Assembly: GCA_016700375.1 (NCBI GenBank)
Contig: CP065016.1
Location: 120,001-152,000, forward strand
Direction of reading: 5' to 3'
Origin: Candidatus Saccharimonadota bacterium
GTDB taxonomy: Bacteria; Patescibacteriota; Saccharimonadia; Saccharimonadales; UBA4665
DNA length: 32,000 nucleotides
Both the position numbers and the translations under genes were made by a program. The notes under the pieces are model-generated. The model was not told the origin of the DNA and did no database searches. It saw nothing but the letters and a program-made list of their open reading frames with translations. Below are positions 7,443 through 31,608 of the stretch, piece by piece (position 1 is the first letter of the stretch; each line of letters starts with the position of its first letter).

Positions 7443-7595
7443 ATGCTCCAATTACCAATTACCAATTACCAATTACCAATGAATTATCAATTTTCAGTTA
7501 CCAATGAAGCTGCAAATGCCACATCGCTACAAGCTAATGTATTGAAAATTGAAAATTGTAAACTGCAAATTGCAGCGACTGAAAGGAGTGTCTAA
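7443..7595 (+). CDS. Spacer-spanning mini-ORF A (50 aa) in the rpoB-rpoC heptamer-repeat spacer
   Basis: The product is MLQLPITNYQLPMNYQFSVTNEAANATSLQANVLKIENCKLQIAATERSV*. This is the only stop-free frame of the spacer. The ATG lies 5 nt after the rpoB TAG, with the SD GGGGAGGAGG inside the rpoB 3' end. The stop TAA overlaps the rpoC ATG (TAATG, 7593-7597). Repeat units are (CCAATTA)x4 at 7448-7475 and an ATTGAAA-type array at 7541-7575. Confidence 0.5.
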   Translation: MLQLPITNYQLPMNYQFSVTNEAANATSLQANVLKIENCKLQIAATERSV

Positions 7596-13328: not shown

Positions 13329-14636
13329 CTATCTACCGATGCCGCGGTAGTGGATGCCGGCTTTTTCTATAGCAGCTTTGTCTAACATGTTGCGACCGTC
13401 TAGTACGTAGCGAATATGGTGTTTTTTCAATAGCGCTGGTGTAAGTTGCTTTACAAAATCGCTGTGCGCGGTGGCGATGAAGATTGCATCTGAAGTGCGC
13501 AGGGCACTTTCGAGCGAGCGAGAGAGATGAAACGGTCGAGCTAGTTTTTCGTCCGATACATAGGGGTCATACGCAGTGACCGAACCAGCGTAGCGTAAGA
13601 GTACATAGCCAGCTTCTATGGCGGCAGATTTTCGCGTATCTGCTATGTCTGGTTTATAGGCGAGACCAAGTATGGCGACACGGAGGTCCCGCAGGTTTTC
13701 GCCGTGGTTTTTTATGAGTCCGCTCAGGCGTCGTACGGCGTACTTTGGCATCCGGTCGTTTAGCTCGGCGGCATCGTCTAAAAAGCGCGTGTCTATGCCG
13801 CTTTCACGGGCGCGCTTTATGACGTAGTGAATGTCCTCTGGTATACAGTGGCCACCGGGCCCTATTCCGGGTTGCGCCAGCCTGAGTCCAAACTGGTCTA
13901 CCTTGGACTGCAAACCTTCCATAACGCGACCAATATCCATCCCCACGCCGTCGCAGATAATCGCGGCGCTATTTGCCATGGCAATCATGACGTTCCGCTG
14001 GGTATTTTCCCACGACTTAACAAACTCTGCTTCTTCGGTAGAGCCAAGGGGAATAATTCGCGCATCGATAATGCTTTTATAAAACGCCACAGCTTTCTTG
14101 GTGCATTTTTCGGTAATCCCGCCGACTACACGGTTTAGGTTACCAACGTATAGCTTCGGGTTGCCGGGGTCAATTCTTTCAGGACAATGTGCCAGATAAA
14201 AATCTACCCCTGCTTTCATGCCAGATTGTCGCTCAAGTATTGGGAGTACTACGTCGCGGGTTACGCCTGGGTTTACGGTGCTTTCCAGCACTACGAGCTG
14301 GCCGGGACGCAGGTTTTTGGCGACGCTGCTGGTTGCGGCCTCAACAAGGCTCAAGTCTGGAATGTTGTGCTCAGTTGGAGTCGGCACGCATATGATGATA
14401 GTTTCTACGTCCTTCAGGGTTTGGTAGTCGGTCGATGTGTGCAGTTGCTTAGCTGGAACTTTTTTAATTGCTGCCTCAAACCGTGCATCATTTGCGTACG
14501 GAGAAGTCCGGCTGTCTATGAGCTTCAAGAGCCTGGTGTTAATATCTATACCAGTAACAGAATACCCTTTATTGGCTGCTTCAACCGCCAAGGGTAGCCC
14601 AACATACCCAAGACCCACTACAGCAAGTGTCTTCAT
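13329..14636 (-). CDS. Nucleotide-sugar dehydrogenase (UDP-glucose/GDP-mannose dehydrogenase family)
   Basis: It has an N-terminal Rossmann motif (VVGLGYVGLPLA), a catalytic-Cys region (GPGGHCIPEDIHY) and a C-terminal UDP-binding domain. The SD is AAGGAG. Confidence 0.85.
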   Translation of the reverse strand: MKTLAVVGLGYVGLPLAVEAANKGYSVTGIDINTRLLKLIDSRTSPYANDARFEAAIKKVPAKQLHTSTDYQTLKDVETIIICVPTPTEHNIPDLSLVEAATSSVAKNLRPGQLVVLESTVNPGVTRDVVLPILERQSGMKAGVDFYLAHCPERIDPGNPKLYVGNLNRVVGGITEKCTKKAVAFYKSIIDARIIPLGSTEEAEFVKSWENTQRNVMIAMANSAAIICDGVGMDIGRVMEGLQSKVDQFGLRLAQPGIGPGGHCIPEDIHYVIKRARESGIDTRFLDDAAELNDRMPKYAVRRLSGLIKNHGENLRDLRVAILGLAYKPDIADTRKSAAIEAGYVLLRYAGSVTAYDPYVSDEKLARPFHLSRSLESALRTSDAIFIATAHSDFVKQLTPALLKKHHIRYVLDGRNMLDKAAIEKAGIHYRGIGR

Positions 14637-17144: not shown

Positions 17145-17175
17145 AAGAGATAAGGAGTAAGAGATAAGAGTTAAG
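17145..17175 (+). repeat. Left arm of heptamer-repeat stem flanking the four-helix-bundle gene
   Basis: The units are AAGAGAT AAGGAGT AAGAGAT AAGAGTT AAG. Bases 17146-17168 are complementary to 17547-17569 at 21 of 23 positions, by hand alignment. Confidence 0.6.
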
Positions 17176-17177
17176 AA

Positions 17178-17543
17178 ATGGCTGTCAATAATTTCAAAGA
17201 CTTAATTGCTTGGCAAAAATCTCATCTCCTGGTGCTAGAAATATATACAATAACAAGCACTTTTCCAAAGTCGGAGCAATTTGGCTTAACGAATCAACTT
17301 CGTAGAGCAGCGGTCTCGATTGTGTCAAATATTGCCGAAGGTTTTGGCCGTCGGACTGTAGCAGATAGAACGCACTTTTACGATATGGCACGAGCATCAT
17401 TGCATGAAGTTCAAGCTCAGCTTATGGTTGCGCGTGATGTTGGCTTCATGCAAGACACTGTACATGAGAAAATCGATACATTCAGCATAGAATGCCATAA
17501 AATATTGACAGGCTTAATTAATAAAACAAATGGTACGAAATAA
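17178..17543 (+). CDS. Four-helix-bundle protein (23S rRNA intervening-sequence protein family)
   Basis: It has the characteristic sequence FKDLIAWQKSHLLVLEIY..FPKSEQFGLTNQLRRAAVSIVSNIAEGFGR. The length is 121 aa. Confidence 0.85.
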   Translation: MAVNNFKDLIAWQKSHLLVLEIYTITSTFPKSEQFGLTNQLRRAAVSIVSNIAEGFGRRTVADRTHFYDMARASLHEVQAQLMVARDVGFMQDTVHEKIDTFSIECHKILTGLINKTNGTK

Positions 17544-17546
17544 GAT

Positions 17547-17569
17547 CTTATCTCTTACCTCTTAACTCT
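17547..17569 (+). repeat. Right arm of heptamer-repeat stem flanking the four-helix-bundle gene
   Basis: The sequence is CTTATCTCTTACCTCTTAACTCT (7-nt periodic CTCTTAN units), the reverse complement of the left arm. It runs directly into the fusA SD (TAAGGAG). Confidence 0.6.
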
Positions 17570-19686: not shown

Positions 19687-20103
19687 ATGAGTAAAAAACC
19701 GACTGATCTAGATGATGTGGTGAACGTTATCTCGGATTTGACCGAGTTGTTTTCGACGCGCTTCGATAAAATGGATCAGCGCTTCGACAAAATGGATGAA
19801 CGCTTCGACAAAATGGATCAGCGCTTCGACAAAATGGACGAGCGCTTCGACAAAATGGATGAACGCATCAACAGCATCGATATGCGCCTGTTTAGCGTTG
19901 AGCAGAAGCTACTGGAGCATGACGTACAATTCGCAAAAATCAATGAACGTATCGACCATCTCTACAGTGTGCTAGACAGTCACATGAAGCGGATTGAGGA
20001 TATCGTGGCTGACAATGTAGCCCGCGACGCGCAACAAGCGCGCATGGAAAAGTGGATTTTCCAAATTGCCGATAAACTTGACCTAAAACTGAATTACGAA
20101 TAG
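19687..20103 (+). CDS. Small coiled-coil protein with RFDKMD(Q/E) heptad repeats
   Basis: The 138-aa product has five perfect 7-aa repeats. Its C-terminus (ARMEKWIFQIADKLDLKLNYE) matches the paralogs at 3325 and 21630. Confidence 0.7.
   Translation: MSKKPTDLDDVVNVISDLTELFSTRFDKMDQRFDKMDERFDKMDQRFDKMDERFDKMDERINSIDMRLFSVEQKLLEHDVQFAKINERIDHLYSVLDSHMKRIEDIVADNVARDAQQARMEKWIFQIADKLDLKLNYE
19759..19863 (+). repeat. 21-bp tandem repeat x5 (coding)
   Basis: The unit is CGCTTCGA(T/C)AAAATGGA(T/C)(CAG/GAA/GAG), repeated head to tail. A sixth degenerate unit follows at 19864-19884. Confidence 0.9.
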
Positions 20104-23110: not shown

Positions 23111-23176
23111 GTGTGGATTTTCCTTACTACTCACACCTTACTACTTACTACTAACCTAAAATCCGGAGGATTTTAA
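23111..23176 (+). CDS. Possible mini-ORF J (21 aa) in the rpsJ leader
   Basis: From GTG the product is (M)[20 protein letters not shown], and the stop lies 2 nt before the rpsJ ATG. It is built on CTTACTA 7-mers like spacer H and its peptide resembles mini-ORF H (..TLTTYYLLLTT..). The weak start makes this tentative. Confidence 0.25.
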
Positions 23177-28113: not shown

Positions 28114-28114
28114 T

Positions 28115-28228
28115 ATGAATCATGAATCACGAATCATGAATCTAGCATGGGAAGTTATCGGCCGCAAGGCGGCAGGCATGATTCATACTACATACTTCAT
28201 GCTTCCGCGACTGAAAGGAGCTGCATAA
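28115..28228 (+). CDS. Spacer-spanning mini-ORF D (37 aa) in the rplW-rplB spacer
   Basis: The product is MNHESRIMNLAWEVIGRKAAGMIHTTYFMLPRLKGAA*. The ATG lies 1 nt after the rplW TAA, with AAGGAGG in the rplW 3' end. The stop overlaps the rplB ATG (TAATG, 28226-28230). It is a paralog of mini-ORF E. Confidence 0.55.
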   Translation: MNHESRIMNLAWEVIGRKAAGMIHTTYFMLPRLKGAA

Positions 28229-29058
28229 TGGCAATTAAACAATACAATCCGACGACGCCTGGTCGTCGCGGTATGTCTAGCCAAGACTTTGACGCGGTGA
28301 CTACACGTAAGCCACTTCGCTCACTGGTTGTTACCAAGCGCCGAGGCAATGGCCGCAATAACCAAGGTCGCATAACGACTCGTCATCAGGGCGGCGGCGC
28401 ACGCAAGCACTATCGCTTGGTAAACTTTGACTTCAAGGGTGAAGGTGTTGTTGAGCACATAGAGTACGACCCAAACCGGAGCGCACGAATTGCACGTATT
28501 AAAGACGCCAAAGGTGCATACCACTATGTACTCGCTGCGAGCGGTATGAAGCAAGGCCAGAAACTGAGCGCCGATGCCGAAGCAGCTATAGAAATGGGCA
28601 ATCGGTTGCCGCTAGCAAACATTCCGGTTGGTACCACAATTCATGCTTTAGAAATGAAGCCAGGGCGCGGCGCACAAGCAGTTCGCAGTGCTGGCAACAG
28701 CGCTATGCTCATGGCCAAAGAAGGCGATTATGCACAGGTTCGTATGCCAAGTGGTGAGGTTCGCAAGTTCCTCCTCGTATGTACTGCCAGCATTGGTGTG
28801 GTCGGTAACGAACAACACCAGAATGTAAAAATCGGCAAAGCTGGCCGTAGTCGTCACCTTGGCAAGCGCCCAAGTGTCCGTGGCGTTGTGATGAACGCTG
28901 TTGACCACCCGCACGGTGGTGGTGACGGTGGTCGTCACCGTATGGCGAAGGCGCCTCGTACGCCATGGGGTCAAAAGACACTTGGCTACAAAACTCGCCG
29001 CCGTAAAGATACTAGCAATATGATCGTAAGAAGCCGCCACGCGGCCAAGAGGAAATAA
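28228..29058 (+). CDS. rplB: 50S ribosomal protein L2
   Basis: MAIKQYNPTTPGRRGMS.. gives the canonical N-terminus at 28228. The motif ..VMNAVDHPHGGGDG.. is present. Confidence 0.96.
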   Translation: MAIKQYNPTTPGRRGMSSQDFDAVTTRKPLRSLVVTKRRGNGRNNQGRITTRHQGGGARKHYRLVNFDFKGEGVVEHIEYDPNRSARIARIKDAKGAYHYVLAASGMKQGQKLSADAEAAIEMGNRLPLANIPVGTTIHALEMKPGRGAQAVRSAGNSAMLMAKEGDYAQVRMPSGEVRKFLLVCTASIGVVGNEQHQNVKIGKAGRSRHLGKRPSVRGVVMNAVDHPHGGGDGGRHRMAKAPRTPWGQKTLGYKTRRRKDTSNMIVRSRHAAKRK

Positions 29059-29061
29059 GCG

Positions 29062-29406
29062 ATGGCAAGTCCTAACCCCAATAAAACATGTGGAACCTGT
29101 GCTCTCGGCGAACCACAAATCGATACTTTTTTCACATGCGGCAATTACAAACGTGTTCCACAATTTGATTCAACGGACGCTATAAATTGTAACGTTGACA
29201 ACACAAACATCATTAGTTTGGGATGGAGTGTCCCTGGTCTAGAAGGGGTATGGCTAGATAGATACCCAAAGAACGCTAGCTGCGGACCATGCGCTGGTCT
29301 ACTAGCCGCGACGCGCTCTCAGGTTGTATGTCACTTAACAAACATTGCTCTTCGGAAAGAGAACAGTGACTGGTGCGGTCAATGGCAGCCAGAAGGGAGT
29401 TTTTAA
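29062..29406 (+). CDS. Cys-rich 114-aa protein inserted between rplB and rpsS
   Basis: The ATG lies 3 nt after the rplB stop, and the stop TAA abuts the rpsS ATG. There are 8 Cys in two similar modules (C10-x2-C13-x12-C26-x16-C43 and C74-x2-C77-x12-C90-x14-C105). The 3' end carries the rpsS SD (GAAGGGAG). Confidence 0.6.
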   Translation: MASPNPNKTCGTCALGEPQIDTFFTCGNYKRVPQFDSTDAINCNVDNTNIISLGWSVPGLEGVWLDRYPKNASCGPCAGLLAATRSQVVCHLTNIALRKENSDWCGQWQPEGSF

Positions 29407-29679
29407 ATGAGTCGTTCATTAAAGAAGGGGCCGTTTATCGATCCGAAGCTCGCGAAAAAAGTCGTGGCGCTTGGCCCAGAGGATCGCACCATTATCAAAA
29501 CATGGGCCCGTGCTAGCACAATTGCCCCAGAGTTTGTTGGTAAAACATTTGCCGTACACAATGGCAAAGTCCACGTACCGGTTTTTGTTACCGAAAATAT
29601 GGTTGGCCACAAGCTCGGTGAATTTAGCCCAACGAGAAAGTTTAGGTCTCATGGCGGAAAGCTAGCCAAAGGTAAATAG
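29407..29679 (+). CDS. rpsS: 30S ribosomal protein S19
   Basis: The sequence is [39 protein letters not shown]. Confidence 0.96.
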
Positions 29680-29680
29680 G

Positions 29681-29797
29681 ATGAATAAAGAATCAAGAAT
29701 CATGAATCATGTTAAGGAAATTATCAGCAGCGAAGCTGCTGGCATGATTCATACTTCATACTTCATGATTCAGAAGCCGGAGGATATATGTCTGTAA
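29681..29797 (+). CDS. Spacer-spanning mini-ORF E (38 aa) in the rpsS-rplV spacer
   Basis: The product is MNKESRIMNHVKEIISSEAAGMIHTSYFMIQKPEDICL*. The ATG lies 1 nt after the rpsS TAG. The stop at 29795-29797 lies 7 nt past the rplV ATG at 29788. Confidence 0.5.
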   Translation: MNKESRIMNHVKEIISSEAAGMIHTSYFMIQKPEDICL

Positions 29798-31495: not shown

Positions 31496-31608
31496 TGAGG
31501 TATAAGCATTCAGCGGAAAGGGGTAAGGGGTTTTCGTCTAGAACCCTTACTACTTACTACTTACTACTTACTACTTCTGAAGTGATGCCCGAAGGGAGGA
31601 ACGTATGA
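31495..31608 (+). CDS. Spacer-spanning mini-ORF H (37 aa) in the rplP-rpmC spacer
   Basis: The product is [37 protein letters not shown]. The start overlaps the rplP stop (TAATG, 31493-31497), and the stop overlaps the rpmC ATG (ATGA, 31605-31608). A (CTTACTA)n array runs about 31546-31576. The hairpin is GTAAGGGGTT..GAACCCTTAC. Confidence 0.5.
   Translation: MRYKHSAERGKGFSSRTLTTYYLLLTTSEVMPEGRNV

Follow-up and report, generated by a model that had tools for sequence, protein, structure and literature searches.

The window analysed here, 32,000 nt of contig CP065016.1 (positions 120,001 to 152,000, forward strand), is the rpoBC/str/S10 region of a Candidatus Saccharimonadales. Its L2 protein shares 100% identity with the L2 of two Candidatus Saccharimonadales metagenome-assembled genomes and 96% with the one encoded by the complete genome CP064992.1. 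Its genes lie in the order tig, clpP, rpoB, rpoC, rpsL, rpsG, a PF05635 gene, fusA and tuf, followed in the S10 part by rpsJ, rplC, rplD, rplW, rplB, a Cys-rich open reading frame (ORF), rpsS, rplV, rpsC, rplP, rpmC and the start of rpsQ. Nine long spacers separate co-directional genes of this region, and the tandem heptamer arrays they contain, together with the ORFs that run across them, are the subject of this report. The spacers sit between protein genes; the window contains no rRNA, and no tRNA, tmRNA or Rfam family was matched in it at the gathering threshold. The spacers were compared across 81 sequences, consisting of the window and 80 related S10-operon loci (L001 to L080) with 19 ribosomal-protein genes mapped, and a spacer was termed long when it measured 55 to 200 nt (n = 91). 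A close relative of the window organism (L161) was examined from rplP to rpsD.

Bridging open reading frames and loss of in-frame stops

All nine long spacers of the window, between genes of the rpoBC, str and S10 groups, carry an ATG-initiated ORF with 36 to 49 sense codons between start and stop. These ORFs begin at or beside the upstream stop codon and finish on the downstream start codon or, for ORF E, 10 nt inside rplV (Table 1). In the two remaining sense frames, each of these spacers has 1 to 10 stops (0 to 5 per frame), and the product of the nine open-frame probabilities obtained from dinucleotide shuffles is 10^-9.1 for the window alone. In the comparison set, a bridging ORF was found in 79 of the 91 long spacers and started with ATG in 78. 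Start offsets from the upstream stop include -3 (ATGA, n = 27), 0 (TAATG, n = 27) and +2 (n = 13), while the ORF stop is offset from the downstream start by 0 in 49 cases and by +3 in 14. Stops in the three sense frames of these 79 spacers number 0 (bridging), 206 and 197, the latter two frames being open in only 4 and 2 spacers; on the antisense strand, the three frames are free of stops in 7, 17 and 5 spacers. A Shine-Dalgarno (SD)-like motif precedes the downstream start in 74 of the 79 elements and the bridging ATG in 50, as against 6% of random positions. This is the layout of a linker cistron, with a start within a few nucleotides of the upstream stop, an internal SD and a stop that overlaps or abuts the next start. 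An alternative genetic code with TGA as a sense codon was ruled out: TGA is an ordinary stop in the window because rplC and rplV end in it, and 22 bridging ORFs stop at TGA.

Table 1. Spacer elements, bridging ORFs and the PF05635 cassette of the window
Feature	Position	Strand	Details
Spacer D, rplW-rplB	28114..28227	+	Putative inserted hairpin element, ATGAATC/GATTCAT family (cluster 0)
Bridging ORF D, 37 codons (MNHESRIMNLAWEVIGRKAAGMIHTTYFMLPRLKGAA)	28115..28228	+	Stops by frame 0/4/1; ATG 1 nt past rplW TAA; TAA overlaps rplB ATG (TAATG)
D 5′ array, ATGAATC x4	28115..28142	+	Third copy ACGAATC; in-frame TGA to CGA (28130-28132)
D central stem-loop, GCCGC-AAG-GCGGC	28161..28173	+	Compensatory changes across the family
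D 3′ array, ATGATTC ATACTAC ATACTTC ATGCTTC	28178..28205	+	In-frame copy TAC (28193-28195); about the reverse complement of the 5′ array
SD GAAAGGAG for rplB	28213..28220	+	Supplied by the element, within conserved 3′ motif CGACTGAAAGGAGC
Spacer E, rpsS-rplV	29680..29787	+	Second copy of the D family, by alignment with D
Bridging ORF E, 38 codons (MNKESRIMNHVKEIISSEAAGMIHTSYFMIQKPEDICL)	29681..29797	+	Stops by frame 0/3/2; ATG 1 nt past rpsS TAG; TAA ends 10 nt within rplV
E 5′ array, ATGAATA AAGAATC AAGAATC ATGAATC	29681..29708	+	In-frame copy AGA (29696-29698)
E central stem-loop, CAGCAGC-GAA-GCTGCTG	29725..29741	+	
E 3′ array, ATGATTC ATACTTC ATACTTC ATGATTC	29744..29771	+	In-frame copy TAC (29759-29761)
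Bridging ORF A, rpoB-rpoC, 50 codons	7443..7595	+	CCAATTA and ATTGAAA arrays; in-frame TGA to TGT (7557-7559); ends in TAATG on the rpoC start
Bridging ORF B, rpsL-rpsG, 49 codons	16509..16658	+	Family of A; ATCGATA array, in-frame junction TAA to AAA
Bridging ORF C, rplC-rplD, 47 codons	26898..27041	+	CCTGTCA/ACGTCAC family; ATGA overlap with rplC stop, TAATG at rplD
Bridging ORF F, rplV-rpsC, 46 codons	30165..30305	+	Starts in ATGA overlap; TGA overlaps rpsC start codons
Bridging ORF G, rpsC-rplP, 48 codons	30936..31082	+	Family of C; junction empty (TAAATG) in L001
Bridging ORF H, rplP-rpmC, 37 codons	31495..31608	+	CTTACTA array; TAATG start, ATGA end
Bridging ORF I, rpmC-rpsQ, 40 codons	31805..31927	+	AAATTCC and TTGGAAC arrays
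PF05635 (23S rRNA intervening sequence protein) gene	17178-17543	+	Pfam E = 3.7e-35; inserted between rpsG and fusA
PF05635 cassette with inverted heptamer arms	17145..17569	+	AAGAGAT-type arm 17145-17177, complement 17546-17569; inverted-repeat z = 7.8

Ninety of the 109 tandem arrays in the bridging ORFs have a period of 7, and since 7 is not a multiple of 3, a stop trinucleotide contained in the unit enters the frame at every third copy. The original prediction was that the copy which would place TGA in frame is the mutated one in the arrays of spacers A, D and E, and that the open frame itself is therefore under selection. The five codons on which it relied (CGA and TAC in D, AGA and TAC in E, TGT in A) all occur where it placed them, in phase 0 of the spacer ORFs, and each occupies a position at which the unit consensus reads TGA. 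Within these five arrays all in-phase copies are indeed variant (5/5), but so are 6 of the 16 out-of-phase copies, so that variation is concentrated in the in-phase copies without being confined to them (hypergeometric p ~0.02). Nor do the five cases represent five independent events, because D and E are copies of one family, all of whose members inherited the 3′ TAC. A sixth clean case, which had been overlooked, lies in the ATCGATA array of spacer B, where the TAA at the in-phase junction has become AAA and three out-of-phase TAA are retained.

Tabulation of phase against variant over the 81 sequences, as had been proposed, gave a far sharper separation. Stop trinucleotides of the heptamer consensus were kept in 0 and lost in 20 in-frame positions, whereas out of frame 60 were kept and 8 lost (Fisher p = 1e-13); with one representative for each of 13 families, the counts are 0 kept and 13 lost in frame and 36 kept and 4 lost out of frame (p = 3e-9). 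Not one of the 20 in-frame consensus stops has survived, and every test that was run agrees with the view that selection keeps the frame open, as opposed to its following from low complexity alone.

That by-product explanation, in which frames are open simply since the repeats are stop-poor, draws on the many heptamers that contain no stop in any phase (CCAATTA, CCTGTCA, CTTACTA, AAATTCC and TTGGAAC) and on the lower frequency of stop-containing units in sense than in antisense orientation in bridging elements (26/73 vs 45/73). It does not account for the other two sense frames, which average about 2.5 stops and are free of them in only 6 of 158 instances, nor for stop-bearing units losing their stop only in phase, nor for start and stop codons placed on gene borders. 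Untranslated relatives lack the stop-poor composition, as 39 of 51 units in the upstream arms of PF05635 genes contain a stop (p = 9e-6 against the 26/73 of bridging elements). Low complexity as the sole cause is almost certainly wrong.

A subfamily of the D/E family (in L004, L006 and L161, e.g., L161 15920-16030) has replaced the 5′ unit of GAGTCAT/ATGAATC type by the stop-free GAGACAA in all copies, at the apparent cost of A.A mispairing with the 3′ arm, as judged by eye from the alignments. By the same visual comparison, this replacement may be a second evolutionary route to an open frame, D and E having instead kept ATGAATC and altered the in-phase copy only.

One could also suppose that the spacer ORFs are ordinary small protein genes with functional peptides: they have ATG starts and SDs, public sets call them hypothetical proteins, and some families seem to be conserved as peptides (e.g., REKSSQS..LRDEKNR). 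The third-position excess that purifying selection leaves in protein-coding genes is absent from them, however, with substitutions in eight families distributed 149/155/151 over the codon positions (chi-square p = 0.94), whereas the flanking rplB, rpsS, rplV, rpsC and rplP of the same genomes have 220/141/1327 (13/8/79%). Homologous DNA is read in different frames between copies, as in two families where about 70% of homologous columns differ in phase, and the conserved 3′ motif GCGACTGAAAGGAGC is translated as ..TERS before the stop in some copies and as ..RLKGA before the stop in others. The peptide likeness tracks nucleotide and hairpin conservation, and a profile search with the peptides of one family returned just 18 protein clusters among 5.8 billion, some of them at non-ribosomal junctions. 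We give the small-protein explanation a very slight probability. Since the frame in use varies between homologous copies, what is selected appears to be the openness of the frame, tied to its being translated, and not the peptide. The spacers would thus be an unusually clean natural case of selection on ORF openness and docking combined with indifference to the peptide, with bearing on small-ORF annotation, de novo gene birth and selfish DNA inside essential operons.

Dispersed hairpin families at tight gene junctions

The usual junctions of Saccharibacteria in this region measure -1 to +3 nt and typically read TAATG or ATGA, the final codons of the upstream gene containing AAGGAGG. Long spacers cluster in close relatives of the window and are patchy even among genomes with 85 to 100% identical L2. 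The rplW-rplB spacer, which is 114 nt in the window, measures 106 nt in L004 and L006, 136 nt in L005 (where it belongs to a different family) and -1 in L001 to L003, the last three having a bare TAATG despite an L2 that is 96 to 100% identical to that of the window. The rpsS-rplV junction of spacer E likewise measures 2 to 3 nt in L004, L006 and L009 to L012. One junction can hold different families in near-identical genomes, and one family can occupy many junctions: clustering yielded five families that are each present at 5 to 6 different junctions, including rpoB-rpoC and rpsL-rpsG, and the ATGAATC/GATTCAT (D/E) family was found at 5.

Copies within the same genome have near-identical cores and junction-specific ends, and the start-side adaptors, which lead from the start codon into the conserved core, vary in length by a multiple of three (12 vs 15 nt). 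In L161, almost all junctions from rplP to rpsD are filled, and the fillings bridge except at rplO-secY (an operon break), secY-infA, infA-rpmJ and rpsH-rplF. The phenomenon is not confined to ribosomal-protein operons, since members of the CCTGTCA family bridge der-pth (L168 to L170) and purC-purB (L171 to L174), in the latter case with ATGA at both ends. From this distribution, the spacers are best read as recent, patchy insertions of dispersed hairpin families into normally tight junctions.

In the hairpin of the D/E family, 4 of 7 pairs of the central stem show compensatory changes, and the arms add one such pair (6 G-C vs 5 A-U). In the arm/stem alignment 76% of cells are paired, compared with at most 44% when the partner is slid, the arm pairing being set by hand since RNAalifold on the sense strand recovers the central stem only. 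Spacers fold more stably than their shuffles in both orientations (mean z -2.2 for sense and -3.5 for antisense), and the antisense strand is more stable than the mRNA strand in 65 of the 91 (p = 3e-6). The sense strand is rich in A.C mismatches, which correspond to G.U on the antisense strand, as noted in window spacers A, B, C and I. A stronger antisense fold was not seen in the arms of PF05635 cassettes. Stop avoidance through sense T to C changes was rejected as the cause of the asymmetry, as a C to T change opposite A would give an in-frame stop in 23 of 323 cases and in 119 of 1205 for G-C pairs (p = 0.16).

Proposed translational coupling and its alternatives

Bridging depends on the kind of junction. 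Seventy-three of the 77 elements at ancestrally tight junctions carry a bridging ORF, compared with 6 of 14 at rpsH-rplF (p = 1.3e-5), which is ancestrally uncoupled (median ancestral spacer 18.5 nt). Coupling requires near-zero spacing (PMC10666635; PMC6728339), and a spacing of about 20 nt almost abolishes termination-reinitiation in E. coli and Haloferax reporters (PMC10666635), so an untranslated insert of 100 to 170 nt should uncouple the genes on its two sides. Some spacers at rpsH-rplF contain ORFs of another kind: in L161 a 57-codon ORF (13776-13949) encodes a strongly hydrophobic peptide and ends 17 nt short of rplF, and other hydrophobic ORFs occur at this junction in L043 and L056.

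We propose that selfish heptamer hairpins probably persist at coupled junctions only as linker cistrons with their own SD. The elements would comprise several families of hairpin-forming dispersed repeats of about 75 to 170 nt, with tandem heptamer arrays as arms, which insert between the stop and start codons of adjacent genes in the compact operons of a single Saccharimonadales clade. A native TAATG or ATGA overlap with the SD of the next gene inside the previous one would support termination-reinitiation, and an insert of 100 to 170 nt would break it. In a surviving copy, the ATG would replace the former junction, lying on the upstream stop or a few nucleotides from it and usually behind the old SD; its cistron would read across both heptamer arms, contain a new SD near its 3′ end and finish on the downstream start codon. 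Ribosomes would then remain on the mRNA through the insert and be delivered to the next start, while selection would delete the stop in exactly the in-frame copy or swap the whole unit for a stop-free heptamer. We infer coupling as the benefit because the ORFs dock on their neighbours as native junctions do, supply an SD and become less frequent at rpsH-rplF, and this last relaxation also lends indirect support to downstream translation depending on that of the linker. If so, it suggests that coupling is important enough in these reduced genomes for about 40 extra codons to be translated at almost every S10/spc/alpha junction.

The open frame may instead serve another effect of translation. 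Ribosomes on the spacer could keep the hairpin melted and so shield the polycistronic mRNA from double-strand-specific cleavage by RNase III (as for the hairpins of 23S intervening sequences, IVS), from attack by other endonucleases, or from the Rho-dependent polarity that an untranslated gap could invite. In favour are the stability and covariation of the hairpins, the match of their arms to those of PF05635/IVS-type cassettes, and the cleavage of the Coxiella IVS hairpin by RNase III at its first heptamer (PMC4990558). In addition, the hand-over of ribosomes may be dispensable because each element has its own SD. Protection of the mRNA leaves unexplained the precise overlaps at the start (-3, 0, +2) and end (0, +3) of the ORFs, as well as the relaxation at rpsH-rplF, where the same hairpins occupy the same mRNA. 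We regard this explanation, the chief alternative to coupling, as possible but rather unlikely.

A more specific form of coupling, in which the hairpin sequesters the downstream SD until a ribosome on the spacer ORF exposes it, is suggested by individual folds: the 5′ ATGCTCC of A and B pairs with the 3′ GGAG in the minimum-energy structure, and F and I contain small ACTCC/GGAGT hairpins. Across the 79 elements, however, the SD is paired with a probability of 0.57, compared with 0.60 when the interior is shuffled and 0.58 at empty junctions (Wilcoxon p = 0.45), and obligate structural coupling of this kind is therefore highly improbable.

Several points weigh against persistence as coupled linker cistrons. 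Sequestration of the SD by the hairpin, a specific form of coupling, was not supported, and a good SD in each element should allow de novo initiation of the downstream gene without coupling. The bridging requirement is strong but not absolute, because a bridging ORF is missing from 4 of the 77 elements found at coupled junctions (L003 rpsQ-rplN, L003 rplX-rplE, L029 rplW-rplB and L045 rplC-rplD). The spacer ORFs are predicted from sequence to be translated in vivo. The mobility of the elements, and any mode of movement, would have to be deduced from their distribution, because no consistent target-site duplication was found across junctions (by-eye candidates TAAT, AATG and ATGA fail to hold) and no transposase was identified in the window, of which not all ORFs were scanned. 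PF05635, carried by the sole gene-bearing relative of the elements, is to our knowledge not a known transposase.

Saccharibacteria can by now be cultured and manipulated genetically (e.g., PMC10633639), so the predictions made from coupled linker cistrons are testable.

PF05635 cassettes, known repeats and other inserts

The window contains one cassette in which inverted heptamer arms frame a gene, namely the PF05635 gene between rpsG and fusA (Table 1). PF05635 (23S_rRNA_IVP) is a family of Avd-like four-helix-bundle proteins. The flanks of 80 metagenomic relatives of this gene (L081 to L160, 39 to 72% identity) were surveyed, and period-7 arrays were found upstream in 51 of 68 and downstream in 49 of 70. 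Arrays on both sides occur at 41 non-redundant PF05635 genes and are reverse-complementary in 37 of them, with a heptamer that varies from gene to gene. In L081 to L083 the cassette lies at rpsG-fusA as in the window, and its arm sequences differ among them.

The 80 S10-operon loci contained no PF05635 homologue, and some gene-less hairpins in them share both arm sequence and polarity with the cassettes (AAGAGAT/AGAGTTA type; rpsH-rplF in L005 and L009, rplB-rpsS in L004). The L005 element at rpsH-rplF corresponds essentially to the arms of the L081 and window cassettes minus the gene. The AAGAGAT hairpins at the uncoupled rpsH-rplF junction have no ORF and keep TAA in 4/4 copies, and TAA is likewise retained throughout the hairpins of this arm type that flank a PF05635 gene. 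In L004, where a related element occupies the coupled rplB-rpsS junction, copies one and two read TAT and those after them TAA; by our own reading of the sequence, TAT falls in the ORF frame in one copy, and the retained TAA is out of frame.

In Coxiella, the 23S IVS carries tandem heptamers upstream of the S23p ORF (PMC4990558). Tentatively, and with considerable doubt, the heptamer-array hairpins may form one widespread mobile class with three forms, namely rRNA IVS, PF05635 cassettes and gene-less junction elements, recognised or even moved by the Avd-like PF05635 protein whose gene many copies hold in their loop. The gene-less form would colonise essential coupled operons by evolving into neutral linker cistrons. 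Such a class would provide a common explanation for PF05635 and for the unexplained bacterial excess of heptanucleotide repeats, and selection for pure translatability would be a ready source of de novo small ORFs. The inverted heptamer framing may in any case offer a concrete way into the function of this very common protein family and into how rRNA intervening sequences arose.

The elements share features with several known systems. Like 23S IVS and PF05635 cassettes, they are extended hairpins in highly expressed operons of the translation apparatus and have matching arms, which flank an optional PF05635 ORF (present at window 17145-17569, missing in L005). They differ in lying at mRNA junctions between protein genes, and not in helix 25 or 45 of 23S rRNA, in mostly lacking the PF05635 gene and in being kept translatable. 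Rickettsia palindromic elements (RPE), reportedly described by Ogata et al. in 2000, are selfish palindromic repeats of about 100 to 150 nt that likewise last in translated sequence by means of a stop-free frame and encode a peptide without evident function. RPEs lie in frame inside host proteins, whereas the upstream genes here end at their stop codon and the element forms a separate intergenic cistron with start, SD, stop and heptamer arrays. The bicistronic design said to have been introduced by Mutalik et al. in 2013 uses a short leader cistron that terminates in TAATG and carries the SD for the target gene. The order is the same, with a first SD, a short ORF whose 3′ end includes a second SD, and a stop that overlaps the following start, but here the unit is a natural mobile repeat between already coupled genes, with a function that its sequence suggests. 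The elements may represent a natural, diverse supply of bicistronic junction parts.

REP/REPIN, ERIC, BOX, Correia and MITE repeats are also short, dispersed, hairpin-forming and often intra-operonic. Dispersed copies and presence/absence polymorphism, as in MITEs, were found here too; their arms consist of inverted heptamer arrays, while the ends vary with the junction and show no consistent duplication at the border. No RAYT or transposase was seen nearby, and the phylum is different. Cyanobacterial small dispersed repeats within tandem heptameric repeats (STRR), reportedly the subject of Elhai et al. in 2008, have similar period-7 arrays, but the host here belongs to the Saccharimonadales and the units vary from element to element and are not those of STRR. 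We know of no REP/REPIN, ERIC, BOX, Correia, MITE or STRR repeat that is maintained as a coupling ORF. Assignment to leader peptides or attenuators is not supported, as the spacers contain no terminator-like sites and match no Rfam family; promoter-like and terminator-like sites were not enriched, and none lies inside the spacers. In full-text literature searches, neither these elements nor heptamer arrays beside PF05635 genes turned up, except for the note on the Coxiella IVS. The ingredients (selfish hairpin repeats, RPE-like tolerance in frame and coupling minicistrons) are thus known, and their apparent combination was not found described.

Other inserts and repeats occur in the same region. 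Unrelated ORFs are repeatedly inserted at the rplB-rpsS junction, a hot spot with spacers of about 290 to 390 nt in the window, L002, L007, L008, L010, L011 and others; each docks to its neighbours through short gaps or TAATG. The window insert (29062-29406) encodes a 114-aa Cys-rich protein without a Pfam match. Gene-sized inserts are likewise present at rplD-rplW, rplW-rplB and rplE-rpsN in some genomes. Between fusA and tuf, a 138-aa ORF (19687-20103) contains 4.9 copies of a 21-nt repeat (19758-19860) that encodes RFDKMD(E/Q) heptads, and its Pfam matches are weak and of coiled-coil type. Within the 221 nt upstream of rpsJ, a (CTTACTA)n array at 23122-23156 with GGATTTT/AAAATCC on its flanks shares its heptamer with the rplP-rpmC element (31546-31576). 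The array has TAA and no bridging ORF, as expected of an operon leader.

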